Source of the DNA: an uncultured Chloroflexia bacterium
GTDB lineage: Bacteria; Chloroflexota; Limnocylindria; Limnocylindrales; CSP1-4
Length of the DNA stretch: 64,000 nucleotides
Reading direction: 5' to 3'
NCBI GenBank assembly: GCA_963748625.1
Contig: CAVVJT010000010.1
Location: forward strand, 512,001-576,000
Below the pieces are notes generated by a model. It was not told the origin of the DNA and searched no databases. It was given only the letters and a program-made list of their open reading frames with translations. Shown here piece after piece: positions 1-8,559 of the stretch; position 1 is the first letter of the stretch, and every line of letters begins with the position of its first letter. Position numbers and translations under genes: made by a program.

Positions 1-3000
1 CGTGCCCGGACGCACGACCGGCGGCAGCCACCCGGTCGGTCGCCTCCTGCCCCGCGCCGCCGTAGCCGCTGAGCTCCTGGTGCCCGCTCGGTCCGACCGC
101 CACGTTCTTGCCGCTCTCGATGTTGGTGAGCGAGGCGAACTTGGCCGACGCGTCCTCGACGGCCAGCTGGTACTCGGGCAGGTCCAGGATCGCGTCGGGC
201 GCGGGCTCCACCACCGGCGGGCGCTCGAGCCCCTCGAGCTGCGCTTCCCACGCCGTCCCCGCGAGGTCCTCCTGGCCCGCCGGGCCCTCGCGGCGGACGG
301 CGACCCGCTCGTCGTACAGGAACCGCAACTCGTCGATCGCGGCGTCCGGGTCGTCGAAGTGGGCGAAGTGGCGCTGGGCGTCCTCCACGCTGTGCATGCC
401 CAGTGCGGACCAGCCGCCGTCGAGCTCGCGGACCTCCGCATCGAGGTCGGCCATGCGCGCTGCCTGGTCCGGTGAGAGCTCCGGGAGCGGCGGCAGGTCG
501 AGATCGGGTGCTGCGGCCGACGCGCCCACGGCACCCGCCCCACCCGCGGCCGGCGGCAGGGGTCCGGCCCCGCCGGTCCGCGCCCGCGCGGCATCGATGT
601 CGCTCCCGATCTGGGCGAGGTGGCGGTCCTTCAGGGACGTGCCCGGGTCCACCGTGCCGCCCCGCATCCAGAAGTTGCCCATCAGGCTCTGGTCCGTGCG
701 CACGCCCGGGGACGCCGCGGTCGCGCGCCGGACGGCCGCCGGGTCCACGTACTCGTCCAGGAGGCCCAGCTGGTGGCCGAGCTCGTGCGCGTGGACGACC
801 GGGTCGTCACCGATGAACCAGTGCTTCTGGTCCGCGCGTGACCCTGGAGCCTTCACGTCCAGCTCGACCTTGAGGTGCGGCGCGTCGGCGGGCGTCACGA
901 ACTCGATCTCGACCCGCAGCCGGTCCCCGTTGGCCAGCGTCTTGCCGGCGTTGTACTGGGCATCGACGCCCGCGTGCACGTCGGCCTTGAGACGGACGAG
1001 CTGGTCCGCGTCGATGGCGACACCGGCCTTCGGTGCGAGCGCCACCTTGATGGTCACCTGGGACACCGTGCCGTTGTCGTACTCGAACCGGCGGACATCG
1101 AAGGCCCCATCGATGTGGTAGCCGTACGGGGACCCGTCGGCGAAGCGGATCGGCCGCCCGAACTCGTCCTGGATCGGGTCCACGCGGCGGGTGCGGACCT
1201 CGGTGACGTTGGCGGCGGCGGCCTCCTGGGCGGCGTACTGCTCGCGCATGCGGGCCATGTCGGCGTCGTAGTCGGCGCCCTTGGTGACGCCGGTCGCCTC
1301 GTCGATCCGGTCGCGCACGGTGGTGTCCGGCTCAGGACCAGCTCCAGTCTTCGTGGACGGTGCCCCCGTGTCCGGGCCGATGCCGGGCGCATCCGCGTCG
1401 GGCGTTCCCGTGCGCGGCGTCGAGGGCTCGTACCAGACGCCCTTGGGCTCCCCGTCACCGAAGCGCACCAGCGGCTCCTCGCCGCCCGCGGTGTGGGCAT
1501 CGACCATCTTCTTGTACGACTTCTGGCCAGCTTCGGTATGGAAGGTCTCCGGCGAGTCCATCTCCCAGCCGGTCACTGCCCCGTGCATGACACCGGCGTC
1601 CGCGTTCTGCAGCGCGGCCTTCGCCTTCGCGTACTGCTCCGGAGTGAGCTGGGTGCCGTCCTTCGCCCGGATGTCGAACACGTCGTGGTCGCCGGTGAAC
1701 GGCAGCTCCTTGCCGTCCACCAGGCCCGTGTTGATGACCACGCCGTTCTCGTCGATCCGGACCAGGCCTGCGTCCTGGAGCTTCTTGATGTCGCTGCCGT
1801 AGTCGTTGAACTCCTCCTCGCGCTGCTTGATCCGCTTGTCGATCTTCTCGCGCGTGGCGGGGTCGAGCTCGGCGTAGTTGTCGGGCTTGACGGGCTTCTT
1901 CTTGGCCGGGTCGAAGATGCCGACCTTGCCGAGGTCGTCCTTCGAGGCGAGGCCGATCATCACGTCCACGTCGTTGATGGTCTTGGCCTTGAGCTTCTCA
2001 GGCTTGGGCAGGGCGGTGCCGTCACGGAGCATCGGCTCGGCGTAGGGGGTCGTCGGGCGGACGTCCACGATGATGTCCATGTCCGAGCAGACCTTGTTGA
2101 TGCGGTCCACGTTCTCGCGCGGCATGCCGTAGCGATCCGCGAGCTCCTCCGGCGACAGCGTCCGCCCGACATCAGCCTCCGATGGACCGCCCTTCCCGGC
2201 CGGGCCCTCGGGTGCGTCCTGACCAAGGGTCTTCGTCTCGCCGTCGGCCTTGGTGGTCGCGGCGCCAGCGCCTTCCGCGTCGGCCTTGGCCTTCGCCTCC
2301 GCGTCGGCGTTGGCCTTGGCATCCGCGTCGGCCTTGGCCTTGGCGTCGGCGTCGGCATCAGCGCCCTTGGCCGTCGACCCGGCTTCGGTGTCGGCGCCGC
2401 CCTTCGCGGTCGCGTCGGCGTCCGCATCGGCCTTGGCGGCCGCGTCGGCGTCCGCTCCGCCCTTGCCTTTGAGCGAGTCGGGCACGGTCGAATCGGGCAA
2501 CTCGCCGCCCTTGGTCGCATCGACGCCCTCGGCACCCGGCGGCAGCTCCCCCGCCGCAGCCTTGTCCGCGGCTCCCGCAGGCGTGGCCTCCGGCGGCAGG
2601 TCCAGCGGCTTCGGCTCGGGCGGCGCGCCACCACCCGCCTTCGATCCTGCGCCACCGCCAGGCGCGTCCACGTCCACCTTCGGGCCGGACCCGCCCAACC
2701 CCTTCTTGGCCGCGCCGGCAAGGTCCCCCGCCCCCTTCATGCCCACGCCCATCGCGGCGCCCATGCCGGCCGCGCCCGCCGTGGACTTGCCGATCTCGCC
2801 CCACGGATCGTCGCTCTTCCAGGTGTTGTCGTTGAGGAGCGCCTCCACGAACGCCGACGGCATGCCCTGGACGGCGTTCTCGATGGCCTCCTCGAGGGCC
2901 TCCTTGGCCCACGCCTTCATGGCGGCCTTCGTCGCGCTGGTGCCACCCTGCTTGGCCGCGGCCTTCGCCATCTGGGCCATGATGGCCTTCTCGAGCGCAG

Positions 3001-6000: not shown

Positions 6001-8559
6001 CGAGCTGCTCCTTGGTGACGCCCGCCGCACCCGCGATCCCCTGCAGCTCCGCCTCCAGCTCCTGCTGGACCGTGGCCTTCTCGGCATCGGCGTCGGTCTT
6101 GAGGCGCGGGACCTTGTCGCCCTTCATCGACGTGACGGCCTTCTTGACGAGGTCCTCCGCCGACGACGGGGCCTTCGACAGCAGGCGGGCAATGGCGTCG
6201 CCGAGGAGGTCGGCCTTGGCCGGGTCGAGCGGTTCGAGCTTGGCCGCGCCCTTGTCCTCCACGGACGGCGGCTTCTGGGCCGGGGCGTCCATGGCGTGGG
6301 CCTCAATCTCGGCGACCTTGGCCTTGCGCGCCTCGAGCTCCTTGGTGAGGGACTCGCGCTCCCCGGGAGTCAGGTCCTTGCCGGCGAGGTCCTGGTCTCC
6401 AGGTCGGCGATGGCCTTCGTCATGGACTTGGGGACGAAGTCCGTGGCGGTCAGCTCGGGGACTGCGGGCATGGTCGAGAAGTCGATCGGCGGGAAGGTCT
6501 GCGTTGTCAGCTTCTTGGCACCGGCATCGATGATCGCCTGCAGGGCTGCGTCCGCCTGGGAGGTGTCGAGGGTCTGCGCCTTCTCGGCCTCCTTGGGCAT
6601 CGGCGGCTGCTTGGACTTGGCGTCGGCCTCGAGGTCGGGCTTGTCGGCCTTGTTCCCCGAGTCGATCTCGTCGCCCTTGCCCTTGACCCTTGCTCCCGCT
6701 TCCTTGGCCTCGCCGAGGTCACCCTTCGGGACGGCCTCGACAGCGCCACCGGCCGCGGCGCGCCACTTCTCGAGGGTGGGGTCGTTGAGGGGAACGGGCT
6801 TGGGGCCGCCGCCGCCGCCGGTTCCTCCGCCGCCTCCGGGCCCGGTTCCTCCTCCAGTCCGGGGCCCGCCGCCGGTTCCTCCCCCGCCGGTGCCCTTGGG
6901 GGCTTGGCCCGCTCCGGTGCCGGTGCCGCCAGGCGCTGTGCCGGCCGTTGGACCGGCGCCGGCGGCCTTGGCGGCGCCGGGGAGGATCGCGGCGGCGGTA
7001 GCTGCGGCTGCGGTGCCGGAGCCCTGGGCAGCGGCGGCGCCCTTCTCCTTGAAGCCCCTCGGGAGCGGCGGGGTGGTCGGCTTGGGAGCGCGCGGGACGA
7101 GGACGCGCTCAGGGCGTGGCGCGTTCGCGGTGATGTGGTCCTCGGGCATGACGATGTCGGCGGCGGGGGTCTGGGGCCGGTTCGAAAGCTGAGGCGCCGT
7201 GCCGGTGATCTGTTCCTCGGGCATCTCGATGTCGGCGGGGGTCTGGGGCCGGTTCGAAAGCTGAGGCGCCGTGCCGGTGATCTGTTCCTCGGGCATCTCG
7301 ATGTCGGCGGGTGCCTGGGGCCGGTTCGCGGGGCGGGGCAATGCGGCGGCTGGCGGCCGGTTCGCAGGGCGGGGCGCCACGGGCGCCTGGGCCTGGTTCG
7401 CGGGGCGCGGCGCGGTCGCGGTGATCTGCTCCTCGGGCATGACGATGTCGGCGGGTGTCTGCGGCCGGTTCGCAGGGCGGGGCGCGGCGGGCGCCTGGGC
7501 CTGGTTCACGGGCCGCGGCGCGGTTGCGGTGATCTGCTCCTCGGGCATGACGATGTCGGCGGGTGTCTGCGGCCGGTTCGCAGGGCGGGGCGCCGCGGCG
7601 GCTGGCGGCCGGTTTGCAGGGCGGGGCGCCACGGGCGCCTGGGCCTGGTTCGCGGGGCGCGGCGCGGCGGCGGTGATCTGCTCCTCGGGCATCTCGATGT
7701 GCGCCGCCGGCGTCTGGTTCGCGAGGCGCGGCGCGGCGGGCGCCTGGGCCTGGTTCACGGGCCGCGGCGCGGTTGCGGTGATCTGCTCCTCGGGCATGAC
7801 GAGGTCGGCCGACGGCCGGTTCGCGAGGCGGGGCGCCGCGGCAGTGATGCGGTCCTCGGGCATGTGGAGGTTCGCGGCGGATGCCCGGTTCGCGGCCGCC
7901 CCCGCGAGCTGGGGCGCCACGTTGGCCGCAGCCGCCGTGGTCTGCGCTCCCGCCTGATCGGACACCGGCGCGCCGGCCTCGCCTGCAGCGGATGTGGGTC
8001 CATCGACCTGTTCACCCGCCGCCGGCCCAGGCTGCGCTCCCTCCTGGGTCGGTGCGGCCTCGGACGAGACCGCACCCGCCGCTGATCGCGATCCGGCCGC
8101 CTTCTCGCGCTCGCCGGACCCGAGCGGCCCAGCGGCCGGTGCCTGCTGCTGCCAGGCGAGGATCGCCCGCGTGATGTTCGGGTTGCGCCGGTCCTCCTGC
8201 TGGGCATCGGCCGGCGCTGAAGCTGGAGACGCCAAGGTCGATGCGGCCGCCGGCACTCGCTGGACCGTGGGCTGCCGGCGCAGGAAGCCCGACACCGCGG
8301 CGTTGCCGGCCATCCGCTGCAGGGCGACCAGGTCGCGACCACGCACCGGCGCACCCGATCCAGACCCGGCGCCCGGCGCCGGACTGCCGCCCTGGCCCCC
8401 ACCGGCGTCCGCGCCCGCCCGCCCGGGCCGGGCGTCGGCGAGGACCTGCTGGACGGCAACCTCGGTCTCGACCGGCGCCGGCGCTTCGACCTCGGGGCGC
8501 CGGACAGCCGCCGATGCGGCATCGACCGCTCGCTCGCCGGGTGCCTTCGTGTCGACCAT
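1..8559 (-). CDS. Giant multidomain putative CIS effector (Pro-rich repeats, annexin repeats, hydrophobic helices, EF/ExoY-like cyclase, metzincin protease); frameshifted, 3' end beyond the window
   Basis: ATG at 8559. Coding fragments 6370-8559, 3815-6292, 4792-5538, 3037-3960 and 2358-4019 join into one protein across indels near 6390, 5545, 4945, 4450-4385, 3980, 3345 and 3185. From ~3185 the minus frame is open to base 1 (hand-translated at both ends and at the motifs; no stop-terminated ORF is listed in that frame). Motifs: LQRMAGNAAV, 4x GxGT(D/N)E, VRP...PKPEKLKAKT, FTGDHDVF, VMHGA, HELGHQLGLLDEY...SLMG. Confidence 0.8.
7120..7875 (-). repeat. Intragenic tandem repeat, 8 copies of (L/I)xMPE(E/D)xIT(A/G)xAP(R/Q) with PANRPQ/NQAQAP spacers
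   Basis: Visible in the 6370-8559 translation; includes a near-exact 72-bp duplication around 7155-7300. Confidence 0.85.

Follow-up and report, generated by a model that had tools for sequence, protein, structure and literature searches.

The left end of the window, by which we mean the whole 64,000-nucleotide stretch of DNA analyzed here, probably carries one gene, spanning 1..8559 and a further 430 nt to the left, which encodes a modular polymorphic toxin serving as cargo or effector of a nearby contractile injection system (CIS) and whose breaks in reading frame are indel errors. A sequence-only reading had proposed a single giant protein of more than 2,800 aa, partly hidden by indels and running past base 1, and its domain order proved right: we located each element it listed, and found the stop of the gene left of the window. 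The features are as follows.

1..8559, minus strand: giant toxin gene; ATG at 8557-8559, stop at G000:C10:511570, 430 nt left of the window
8293..8322, minus strand: N-terminal motif LQRMAGNAAV at residues 80-89; VQR comes after it, at 8251-8271
7126..7869, minus strand: Pro/Ala-rich region with seven or eight copies of [IV][EV]MPE[ED]xITA
6796..6927, minus strand: Gly-rich segment
4990..6783, minus strand: conserved scaffold start DPTLEKWRAAA and long helical, charged region
3600..4990, minus strand: four annexin-type repeats, with GxGT[DN]E loops starting at 4965, 4738, 4519 and 3795
3184..6397, minus strand: stretch with eight single-base frame changes, from translations and tblastn tiling
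6391-6397, 5550-5558, 4942-4945, 4901-4907, 4858-4863, 3969-3980, 3344-3355 and 3184-3186, minus strand: the frame changes, from three-frame translations
3113..3236, minus strand: hydrophobic Ala/Gly/Val-rich helical hairpin, family-conserved
3017-3073, minus strand: weaker hydrophobic segment
2264..2467, minus strand: Ala/Asp/Lys (ADADAKAK-type) repeat linker
1421..2188, minus strand: EF/CyaA/ExoY-fold nucleotidyl cyclase module, with motifs VRP (2048-2065), PKPxxxKAKT (1979-2008), GDHD (1682-1693) and HGA (1574-1588)
575..1324, minus strand: metzincin-like zinc protease module, with motif HELGHQLGLLD starting at 787 and candidate Met-turn SLMG at 671-688
200..502, minus strand: helical pre-toxin linker; the corresponding region is 32% identical to G010
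1..199, minus strand: first part of SsdA-like deaminase module, with SHSE and CPAC motifs at -53..-133, left of the window
8868..11154, minus strand: LuxR/LAL-type regulator (AAA_16, MalT-TPR and GerE), read as two ORFs, just upstream of the toxin gene
24714..38792, strand not assigned: CIS cluster

A GC3 frame plot and three-frame translations revealed just one coding signal on the minus strand, running from 8559 leftwards beyond base 1. The pieces (summing to about 2,982 codons, a reading unit of ~2,980) contained no in-frame stop, each had a GC3 of 0.9-1.0, and together they predict a protein of roughly 320 kDa. Its MVDT start is conserved. The intact 2,858-aa ORF of the congener G010, used as a tblastn query, aligned to the pieces in colinear order (query residues 22-736, up to 993, 996-1201, 1197-1524, 1518-1728, 1711-1780, 1780-2159 and 2276-2674).

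The cyclase is shown to be one by both its fold and its catalytic signatures. Its AF2 model reached a pLDDT of 96.7, and CyaA, EF and ExoY made up all of the top 24 Foldseek matches. In VIA comparisons it scored Z = 12.5 with EF (rmsd 2.9 Å over 188 aa), 11.5 with ExoY and 11.2 with CyaA, the next unrelated chain reaching 2.5. When a profile of 35 sequences was run against the PDB, all 14 hits were cyclase toxins (best E 1.6e-5), the top one being the ExoY module from a Vibrio MARTX toxin; the K..KAK and DxD motifs aligned to ExoY. The R, three K, D, DxD, H and W positions are invariant in all 35 sequences, among them K62, K67, K69, D167, D169 and H202, which we take to be the catalytic lysine pair, DxD metal site and histidine corresponding to the named EF residues. 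The curated Pfam cyclase-family model gave no hit to the module even at E ≤ 1, and the sequence family to which it belongs, distinct and unnamed, has 672 representatives. EF/ExoY-type cyclases are known to need eukaryotic cofactors; since the module has only about 256 aa, versus 350-500 aa in solved cyclases, the cofactor-binding inserts may be missing.

The zinc protease of the sequence-only reading corresponds, with moderate support, to a putative metzincin-like HExxHxxGxxD protease at 575..1324. The motif HELGHQLGLLD is invariant in nine of nine sequences, and all 50 entries listed by VIA were metzincins (Z 6.5-4.9). The structural model is of moderate quality (pLDDT 68.7), being poor at residues 190-229, where the candidate Met-turn lies; a Foldseek search with it gave no match at E ≤ 0.001 (best family hit E 8e-3), and Pfam did not recognize the module. 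The further domain suspected to the left is a deaminase by both fold and catalytic signatures: it aligned with SsdA (PDB 7jtu) over 137 residues (E 5.5e-13), with HxE and CxxC matching, and scored 29.5 bits against Pfam SsdA_C (cut-off 27). The immunity genes also anticipated on this side did not appear: the 0.6-0.8 kb downstream of the toxin gene lacks any coding signal, and beyond it lies a convergent, conserved gene of 257 aa. In L024, another gene follows directly on the toxin ORF.

Membrane-associating modules precede this series of enzymatic ones. Pfam identified annexin repeats at E 2.2e-18 and 1e-5 (PF00191, 66.5 and 25.9 bits, gathering cut-off 25), and the intact G010 homologue matched annexin VI at E 4.2e-23. 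The hydrophobic helices previously placed at ~2750-3240 are present over a narrower extent, as the hairpin at about 3113-3236 and the weaker segment at 3017-3073. The helical region upstream gave a weak Apolipoprotein-like Pfam match (E 0.0021) far below the cut-off. At the N-terminus, LQRxAGNxAV is a plausible loading leader: motifs of this type head five of eight small homologues of the protease module as well as a 333-aa cyclase protein, and recur in 4-5 other ORFs of the same genome. The strict motif is rare in the family (5 of 23 loci, 9 of 49 proteins), and a search with the leader sequence alone returned no matches.

We assign the toxin to a family of annexin-scaffold polymorphic toxins, 2,000-3,400 aa long, that are located in CIS loci. 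The CIS cluster in the window encodes a Pvc16_N cap/AAA+ ATPase, sheath, two gp19 tubes, a LysM tube protein, VgrG-like spike, PAAR, gp25, Baseplate_J and Tail_P2_I; transport and sulfatase genes fill the 16 kb between it and the toxin gene. Among 23 related loci, 17 have CIS genes no more than 10 kb away, and the toxin gene there often lies between those for the sheath and the ATPase; the flanks of the other six lack CIS genes, two of these being contigs under 9 kb. An N-terminal eCIS_core/DUF4157 domain occurs in three of eight scanned family members (P0005, P0026 and P0029); in the window protein, Pfam gave no hit to this domain and the first 400 residues contain no HExxH. Because a CIS lies in the window, 17 of 23 loci are linked to one, and relatives carry DUF4157, we read the toxin as CIS cargo. 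Points that count against a cargo role are the missing eCIS_core domain and the 16-kb gap to the cluster, along with the rarity of the strict leader, the six loci without CIS genes and the lack of an immunity gene. Exchange of C-terminal modules, which the sequence-only reading had suggested looking for, is evident among the homologues, whose swapped domains include AHH, WHH, Ntox4, ADP-ribosyltransferase and PT-HINT. None of 49 relatives combines all three enzymatic modules; the architecture class was already described computationally in 2012 and 2021, and its triple-toxin member is new.

The eight frame breaks, all at short G/C runs, are most likely errors of an error-prone assembly rather than biology, because such breaks pervade the assembly: across 4.63 Mb and on all 10 contigs we counted 372 frame switches with no stop close by, compared with three in 300 kb of controls (15 loci from two congeners), a roughly 8-fold higher rate. 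Unrelated neighbours are split as well (DUF2254, sulfatase and the 257-aa gene), housekeeping-type genes among them, and in contigs of relatives from four runs of four studies the length differs by a single letter within 12 nt of five of the eight junctions. A genuine pseudogene, in which real frameshifts have disabled a formerly intact CIS toxin gene in this strain, is unlikely. It would account for the crowding of eight breaks into 3.2 kb, when the rest of the gene on either side (2.2 kb and 3.6 kb) has none, and for the displacement of the gene by 16 kb from its CIS cluster, unlike in G010. With 16 switches, the 50-kb bin that contains the gene is also the worst of its contig, which could mean local gene decay as well, and the best public read run contained only 0.11 of the sampled words. 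Against a pseudogene stand the lack of in-frame stops and the GC3 of 0.9-1.0 throughout, and the broken part is as similar to G010 (53-64% identity) as the unbroken part (47-50%).

As to what kind of toxin this is, we rejected the MARTX kinship suggested by the title of the sequence-only reading. Membership of the MARTX family, with export by a type I system, would fit the very large size, the tandem effector modules and the ExoY-like cyclase with its best profile match in a Vibrio MARTX toxin, but is highly improbable: no piece gave a Pfam hit to RTX, HemolysinCabind or RtxA at E ≤ 0.01 (up to E 1 or 10 for selected sub-segments) or to Peptidase_C80, the inositol-hexakisphosphate-activated cysteine protease domain (CPD), of which a remote version is possible; none of 30 neighbouring ORFs scanned (8.8-45 kb) is a type I secretion gene; and the family is located in CIS loci. 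We also consider it quite unlikely that the protein is not injected cargo but, like Sle1, serves a cytoplasmic Streptomyces-type CIS as a component for membrane anchoring or regulation, and acts on the membrane or cell of its own producer in regulated cell death or physiological tuning. The locus position beside the sheath gene in reverse direction matches Sle1/Sle2, the logic of coiled coil, TM hairpin and variable C-terminus is shared with that described in PMC13277306, Streptomyces CIS act inside the producer according to PMC10020575, and no immunity gene was found. Against this, relatives swap the C-terminal modules, which are toxin domains of the classic offensive kind, and PHROGs returned no tape-measure similarity for any of four queries. 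The dependence of EF/ExoY-type cyclases on eukaryotic cofactors likewise speaks against this reading, and the sequence is compatible with a cytoplasmic as well as with a released CIS.

With the toxin read as CIS cargo, its disordered N-terminus would direct it to the CIS through the LQRxAGNxAV motif, and the AAA+ ATPase would probably unfold this roughly 320-kDa protein and load it into the tube lumen, as has been demonstrated for AlgoCIS cargo. After firing, the annexin repeats may bind acidic phospholipid and the hydrophobic hairpin may insert into the membrane of the presumed target organism, a step that would carry the C-terminal modules, separated by flexible linkers, to their substrates. 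There the ExoY/EF-type cyclase would produce cyclic nucleotides, the metzincin-like protease would cleave targets or release modules, and the SsdA-like deaminase would damage DNA.

Several known systems resemble the window protein in part. According to Zhang et al. 2012 (PMC3482391), PVC-delivered toxins use annexin as a membrane-breaching accessory, and according to Geller et al. 2021 (PMC8213781), toxins with N-terminal DUF4157 have linkers over 1,000 aa. These toxins share with ours CIS linkage, an annexin module placed before bona fide toxin domains at the C-terminus, 'linker' regions of great length and the exchange of C-terminal toxins; a single annexin repeat is described for them, whereas the window protein has four and adds a conserved hydrophobic hairpin and three tandem enzymatic modules. 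DUF4157/eCIS_core, the PVC-metallopeptidase domain, is frequent but optional in eCIS/PVC-associated toxins (EATs), and here it is present in relatives and absent from the window protein itself. Like MARTX toxins and their ExoY-like module (PDB 8bjj, 7p1h), the protein is a multi-effector polypeptide with an ExoY/EF-fold cyclase, set in a CIS context for delivery. SsdA is a T6SS single-strand DNA deaminase toxin of Pseudomonas syringae; the deaminase here has a CIS scaffold as its fusion partner in place of a T6SS carrier, and its gene has no SsdAI-like immunity gene next to it.

The Sle1/Sle2 effectors of actinobacterial CIS, as described by Nagakubo et al. 2026 (PMC13277306), have genes adjoining the sheath gene, a DUF4157 association, a large helical N-terminal part with coiled coil, a transmembrane helical hairpin and, at the C-terminus, a functional domain that varies; some are nuclease toxins. 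Likened by these descriptions, the window protein is one polypeptide several times larger, with annexin repeats. AlgoCIS Cgo1/Cgo2, according to bioRxiv 10.64898/2026.05.27.728243, similarly comprise a disordered N-terminal loading sequence, an optional DUF4157 and an effector part, with loading that depends on an AAA+ ATPase. Cgo2 has 1,228 residues versus about 2,980 in the window protein, and whereas that paper found loading sequences to be unconserved between systems, several cargo-like proteins here share a short motif.

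The assembly comprises 4.63 Mb in 10 contigs at ~71% G+C (completeness 98.3%, contamination 7.74%), and its ORF lists divide positions 1–8559 of the window into four large ORFs, all on the minus strand, that differ in frame. Over the same interval, the GC3 frame plot shows a single unbroken coding signal that repeatedly switches frame. From three-frame translations, stop-to-stop extents and peptide anchors, we located eight frame changes, each at a short G/C run, and the resulting pieces total ~2,982 codons. Using the last piece as query against 41 genomes (this one and 40 relatives), we recovered one further carrier, the congener G010, whose homologue is an uninterrupted open frame of 2,858 codons. 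In tblastn, eight or nine window pieces align to the G010 protein in strict order, with identities of 35–64% across the scaffold and of 50% across the cyclase; both proteins begin with MVDT. Because the pieces tile colinearly on the G010 protein, we read them as one gene and rejected a set of separate, unrelated genes; with the GC3 signal, this tiling confirms the sequence-only reading of one giant gene hidden from the ORF track. The additional sequence that it saw running past base 1 is an SsdA-like deaminase module, and the final frame meets no stop until 430 nt beyond the left edge of the window.

Features of the giant toxin gene and the gene that follows it (window positions; negative positions lie left of window base 1).
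8559 to −430, minus: giant toxin gene, starting at ATG
8293–8322, minus: LQRMAGNAAV of the leader, with VQR a few residues further
7126–7869, minus: 7–8 copies of the repeat [IV][EV]MPE[ED]xITA in Pro/Ala-rich sequence, between Pro-rich spacers
6796–6927, minus: Gly-rich stretch
6751–6783, minus: DPTLEKWRAAA, the family-conserved scaffold start
~3113–3236: hydrophobic Ala/Gly/Val hairpin, with a weaker segment at 3017–3073
2264–2467, minus: Ala/Asp/Lys repeat linker
1421–2188, minus: cyclase module, not seen by Pfam, assigned from predicted structure and profile
575–1324, minus: protease module
199 to −226, minus: deaminase module
−2024 to −1241 (contig C10, 509976–510759), plus: convergent 257-aa gene, frame-broken here
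6391–6397, 5550–5558, 4942–4945, 4901–4907, 4858–4863, 3969–3980, 3344–3355 and 3184–3186, minus: the eight frame changes

We weighed two main accounts of these breaks, sequencing error and a real pseudogene in the source strain. Of these we favor sequencing error as the likeliest, since the gene contains no in-frame stop and its codon bias is undiminished; a pseudogene is the less probable account. Frame switches were counted by codon-position Viterbi segmentation as same-strand switches without a stop within 75 nt. Contig C10 has 118 of them (8.4 per 100 kb), with the maximum of 16 in the 50-kb bin of the giant toxin, and the whole genome has 372, with every contig affected; 15 control loci from the congeners G010 and G006 yielded 3 in 300 kb. 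These counts are too low, as the scan detected just 5 of the 8 toxin-gene breaks. Unrelated neighbors at 8868–17233 are also split, as judged by Pfam and segmentation:
8868–11154: LAL-type LuxR regulator beside the toxin gene, read as two ORFs
~11988–14172: sulfatase in three frames, whose long ORF covers only profile positions 200–301
14260–15500: DUF2254 gene, with profile positions 1–247 and 257–355 in different ORFs

None of the public sequencing runs searched contains the window stretch (best share 0.11). Relatives' contigs aligned to 2800–6800 (four runs from four studies, mostly 85–95% alike) carry single-letter length differences, which among the matches listed fall within 12 nt of at least five of the eight junctions, three junctions lying outside these matches, and also form two compensating pairs away from junctions. 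Programmed frameshifting was rejected because the eight shifts run in both directions and have no common motif. With sequencing error as the preferred account, the toxin gene is hidden in the ORF track only because the assembly has ~8 frame breaks per 100 kb. Every gene call in this genome needs equal caution, and split marker genes may inflate the 7.74% contamination estimate.

From N- to C-terminus, the protein opens with 110 low-complexity residues that include the leader. The MPE-type repeats that follow, which may act as a multivalent docking element, are replaced in G010 by five IEMPPxxI copies (residues 208–463). A long charged helical region, whose sole Pfam signal is a weak Apolipoprotein-like match, precedes four annexin-type repeats (Pfam E = 2.2e-18 and 1e-5) with four GxGT[DN]E loops; annexins accounted for all 60 PDB matches listed for the G010 homologue (best E = 4.2e-23). 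NCBIfam gave no meaningful match to any piece or to the G010 protein, and Pfam gave none for the cyclase, protease or pre-toxin linker. PHROGs matched none of four queries, so a tape-measure relation finds no sequence support. G010 and most close relatives carry an extra ~115-aa module between hairpin and cyclase (G010 ~2160–2275) that the window protein lacks and that has no Pfam match; a JAMM-like identity, considered for it from a motif, was dropped.

The AlphaFold2 model of the cyclase module has a mean pLDDT of 96.7, and its best 24 Foldseek matches in the PDB were all CyaA, edema factor (EF) or ExoY (best E = 5.4e-6). VIA-align gave Z scores of 12.5 to EF (rmsd 2.9 Å over 188 aa), 11.5 to ExoY and 11.2 to CyaA, with the nearest unrelated chain at 2.5. 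All 14 PDB matches to the cyclase profile were cyclase toxins, and its best match was the ExoY module of a Vibrio MARTX toxin (E = 1.6e-5), with VRP...K...KAK and DxD aligned. Nine residues are invariant in a 35-member alignment (R44, K62, K67, K69, D75, D167, D169, H202, W208). Because fold, profile and invariant residues agree, the label of cyclase already proposed from the sequence is well founded. At E ≤ 1e-3 the family numbers 672 cluster representatives, and at the stricter E ≤ 1e-10 it still numbers 429; many members are embedded in proteins as long as 7,780 aa. Modeling and alignment assign a predicted EF/ExoY-type cyclase fold and catalytic signature to this large unnamed family. An EF/ExoY-like payload gene is on record in a Photorhabdus PVC operon, according to the pertinent section of PMC6748792.

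The protease module is likely a metzincin-like zinc protease, a reading drawn from motif and predicted fold taken together. It has eight homologues, among proteins of 137–438 aa, and HELGHQLGLLDEY is invariant in all nine aligned sequences. The model is of moderate quality (pLDDT 68.7); Foldseek returned no match at E ≤ 0.001, and the list above that threshold was headed by fragilysin, myroilysin, karilysin, MMPs and ADAMTS. All 50 entries listed by VIA were metzincins, at Z scores of 6.5–4.9 that are too low for the fold alone to convince. Matches of the profile to the PDB covered only the HExxH helix (E > 0.2), and the ESM Atlas gave leads only, to Peptidase_M6/M10 clusters. The deaminase module matches the solved SsdA toxin over 137 residues (E = 5.5e-13), with SHSE/SHAE and CPAC/CTDC aligned, and passes Pfam SsdA_C.

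Beyond the deaminase, ~70 low-complexity residues lead to the stop. No coding signal was found over the 0.4–0.8 kb downstream of it (window −430 to −830). This stretch contains direct and tandem repeats, in which the translated strings GPRLRVLAS..SSPP and RTIRASM recur. The immunity genes that had been suggested to lie left of the window were not borne out, the ~0.8 kb without coding signal being followed by the conserved 257-aa gene. That gene comes next after the toxin gene both in this genome and in 11 of the 23 related loci, and has no match in Pfam or the ESM Atlas. Because it is found whatever the toxin type, we rejected it as a cognate immunity gene; an accessory role in loading or assembly is conceivable. 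In one congener locus (L024:17610–18365, plus), the pre-toxin and deaminase module lie out of frame with the cyclase and overlap the end of a 2,589-aa ORF, reflecting either an assembly frameshift or a separate ORF.

To place the giant toxin in a wider family, we used residues 700–2000 of the G010 protein as a scaffold query and recovered 49 proteins of 1,662–3,372 aa. Nearly all contain Annexin, accompanied by Ntox4, AHH, WHH, ADP-ribosyltransferase, PT-HINT or N-terminal eCIS_core, and their names at source are 'polymorphic toxin type 4 domain-containing' or 'eCIS core domain-containing'; a Georgenia strain is among the cultivable carriers. Scanning genomes with an 8-protein alignment, we located 23 loci (fragment-row and 17-protein alignments were useless for locus finding), in MAGs of Chloroflexia/Chloroflexota, Acidimicrobiia, Actinomycetes, Pirellulaceae and Gemmatimonadaceae and in isolates of Solirubrobacter, Streptomyces and Actinoplanes. 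With its 49 proteins and 23 loci, the scaffold family is widely spread, over at least five phyla. Contractile injection system (CIS) genes lie within 10 kb in 17 of the 23 loci, the toxin gene often sitting between the sheath and ATPase genes; two of the six loci without a nearby CIS gene are contigs below 9 kb. In the window itself, a complete-looking CIS cluster spans 24.7–38.8 kb (cap/ATPase, sheath, tubes, LysM tube protein, spike, PAAR, gp25, Baseplate_J, Tail_P2_I). The locus connects delivery by CIS with a membrane hairpin and with annexin repeats. Cyclase, deaminase and protease modules occur in 13, 3 and 0 of the loci and in 15, 2 and 1 of the 49 proteins, none of which combines all three; a 409-aa metagenome fragment (64% identity) runs from the protease into the start of the deaminase.

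The strict leader, LQRxAGNxAV, stands at the N-terminus of the giant proteins of 5 of the 23 loci and had no match in 280 kb of control loci. It also occurs in 9 of the 49 family proteins, in 5 of the 8 small protease homologues and at the head of a 333-aa protein that is otherwise the cyclase module alone. Since the leader tops such small homologues, each warhead is also found as a small tagged protein elsewhere. Other ORFs with LQRxAGNxAV...VQR in this genome (C7:626298, C10:1376686, C4:49601, C10:750846) comprise a 600-aa protein that Pfam does not recognize, a DUF922 protein, a 153-aa ORF and a 66-aa ORF that immediately precedes an ABC-transporter ATPase gene. The leader alone as query (110 aa, against longer proteins) gave no match, which is weak evidence, and a full-text literature search for the motif in several spellings found no paper. 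Because eCIS loading signals are described, in the relevant parts of PMC11297309 and a 2026 AlgoCIS preprint (bioRxiv 10.64898/2026.05.27.728243), as N-terminal and disordered with no conserved sequence found, LQRxAGNxAV is a candidate loading motif, at least for this lineage, and open to direct testing.

Of all parts of these injection machines, the cargo is understood least, and to our knowledge almost none has been characterized outside Proteobacteria, Bacteroidota and Streptomyces. Very large eCIS cargo does exist, as in Afp18 of Serratia (>2,300 aa). The modular logic of the sequence-only reading stands; its family name does not, as the giant toxin is not a MARTX protein. As far as the pertinent passages of the following papers go, it fits two groups already on record. 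One is the polymorphic toxins delivered by PVC/eCIS and equipped with annexin as an accessory, which a comparative-genomics study described in 2012, proposing that annexin aids in breaching the target membrane (PMC3482391); the other, noted in 2021, is the toxins headed by DUF4157 whose linkers exceed 1,000 aa (PMC8213781). Among systems studied by experiment, the closest logic, on the same footing, is that of Streptomyces Sle1/Sle2. This pair is sheath-adjacent and has a DUF4157 partner, combines a coiled coil and a TM hairpin with a C-terminus that can be exchanged, is packaged in the particle and moves to membranes (PMC13277306). Set against the pair, the giant toxin resembles a fused and far larger counterpart that bears annexin repeats and strings three toxins together.

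A broader reading, which we regard as tentative and rather unlikely to hold in all its parts, joins three propositions: that the front end is a self-contained post-injection translocon, that LQRxAGNxAV is a true conserved loading signal, and that the EF/ExoY-fold module marks Chloroflexota as attackers of eukaryotic microbes. The front end would consist of the leader, MPE-motif repeats, helical region, four annexin repeats and hydrophobic hairpin. If this were true, CIS of Chloroflexota, Actinomycetota, Planctomycetota and Gemmatimonadota would deliver exchangeable tandem enzymatic cargo of >300 kDa across the target membrane, giant protein and small single-module cargo would share one leader, and the attackers would be Chloroflexota of soil and sediment.

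Two further ORFs were noted at the CIS cluster. One (21268–24375, plus) directly adjoins the CIS ATPase gene; it has 1,035 aa and a strong codon bias, and Pfam finds nothing in it. The 1,018-aa "Pvc16_N + WHD + AAA" ORF (24714–27770, minus) resembles out-of-frame sequence at residues 213–325, and segmentation flags 26870–27129. In other loci the Pvc16_N-cap and ATPase parts lie on different frames or opposite strands, and the ORF is probably two genes (cap/terminator and ATPase) or frame-broken.
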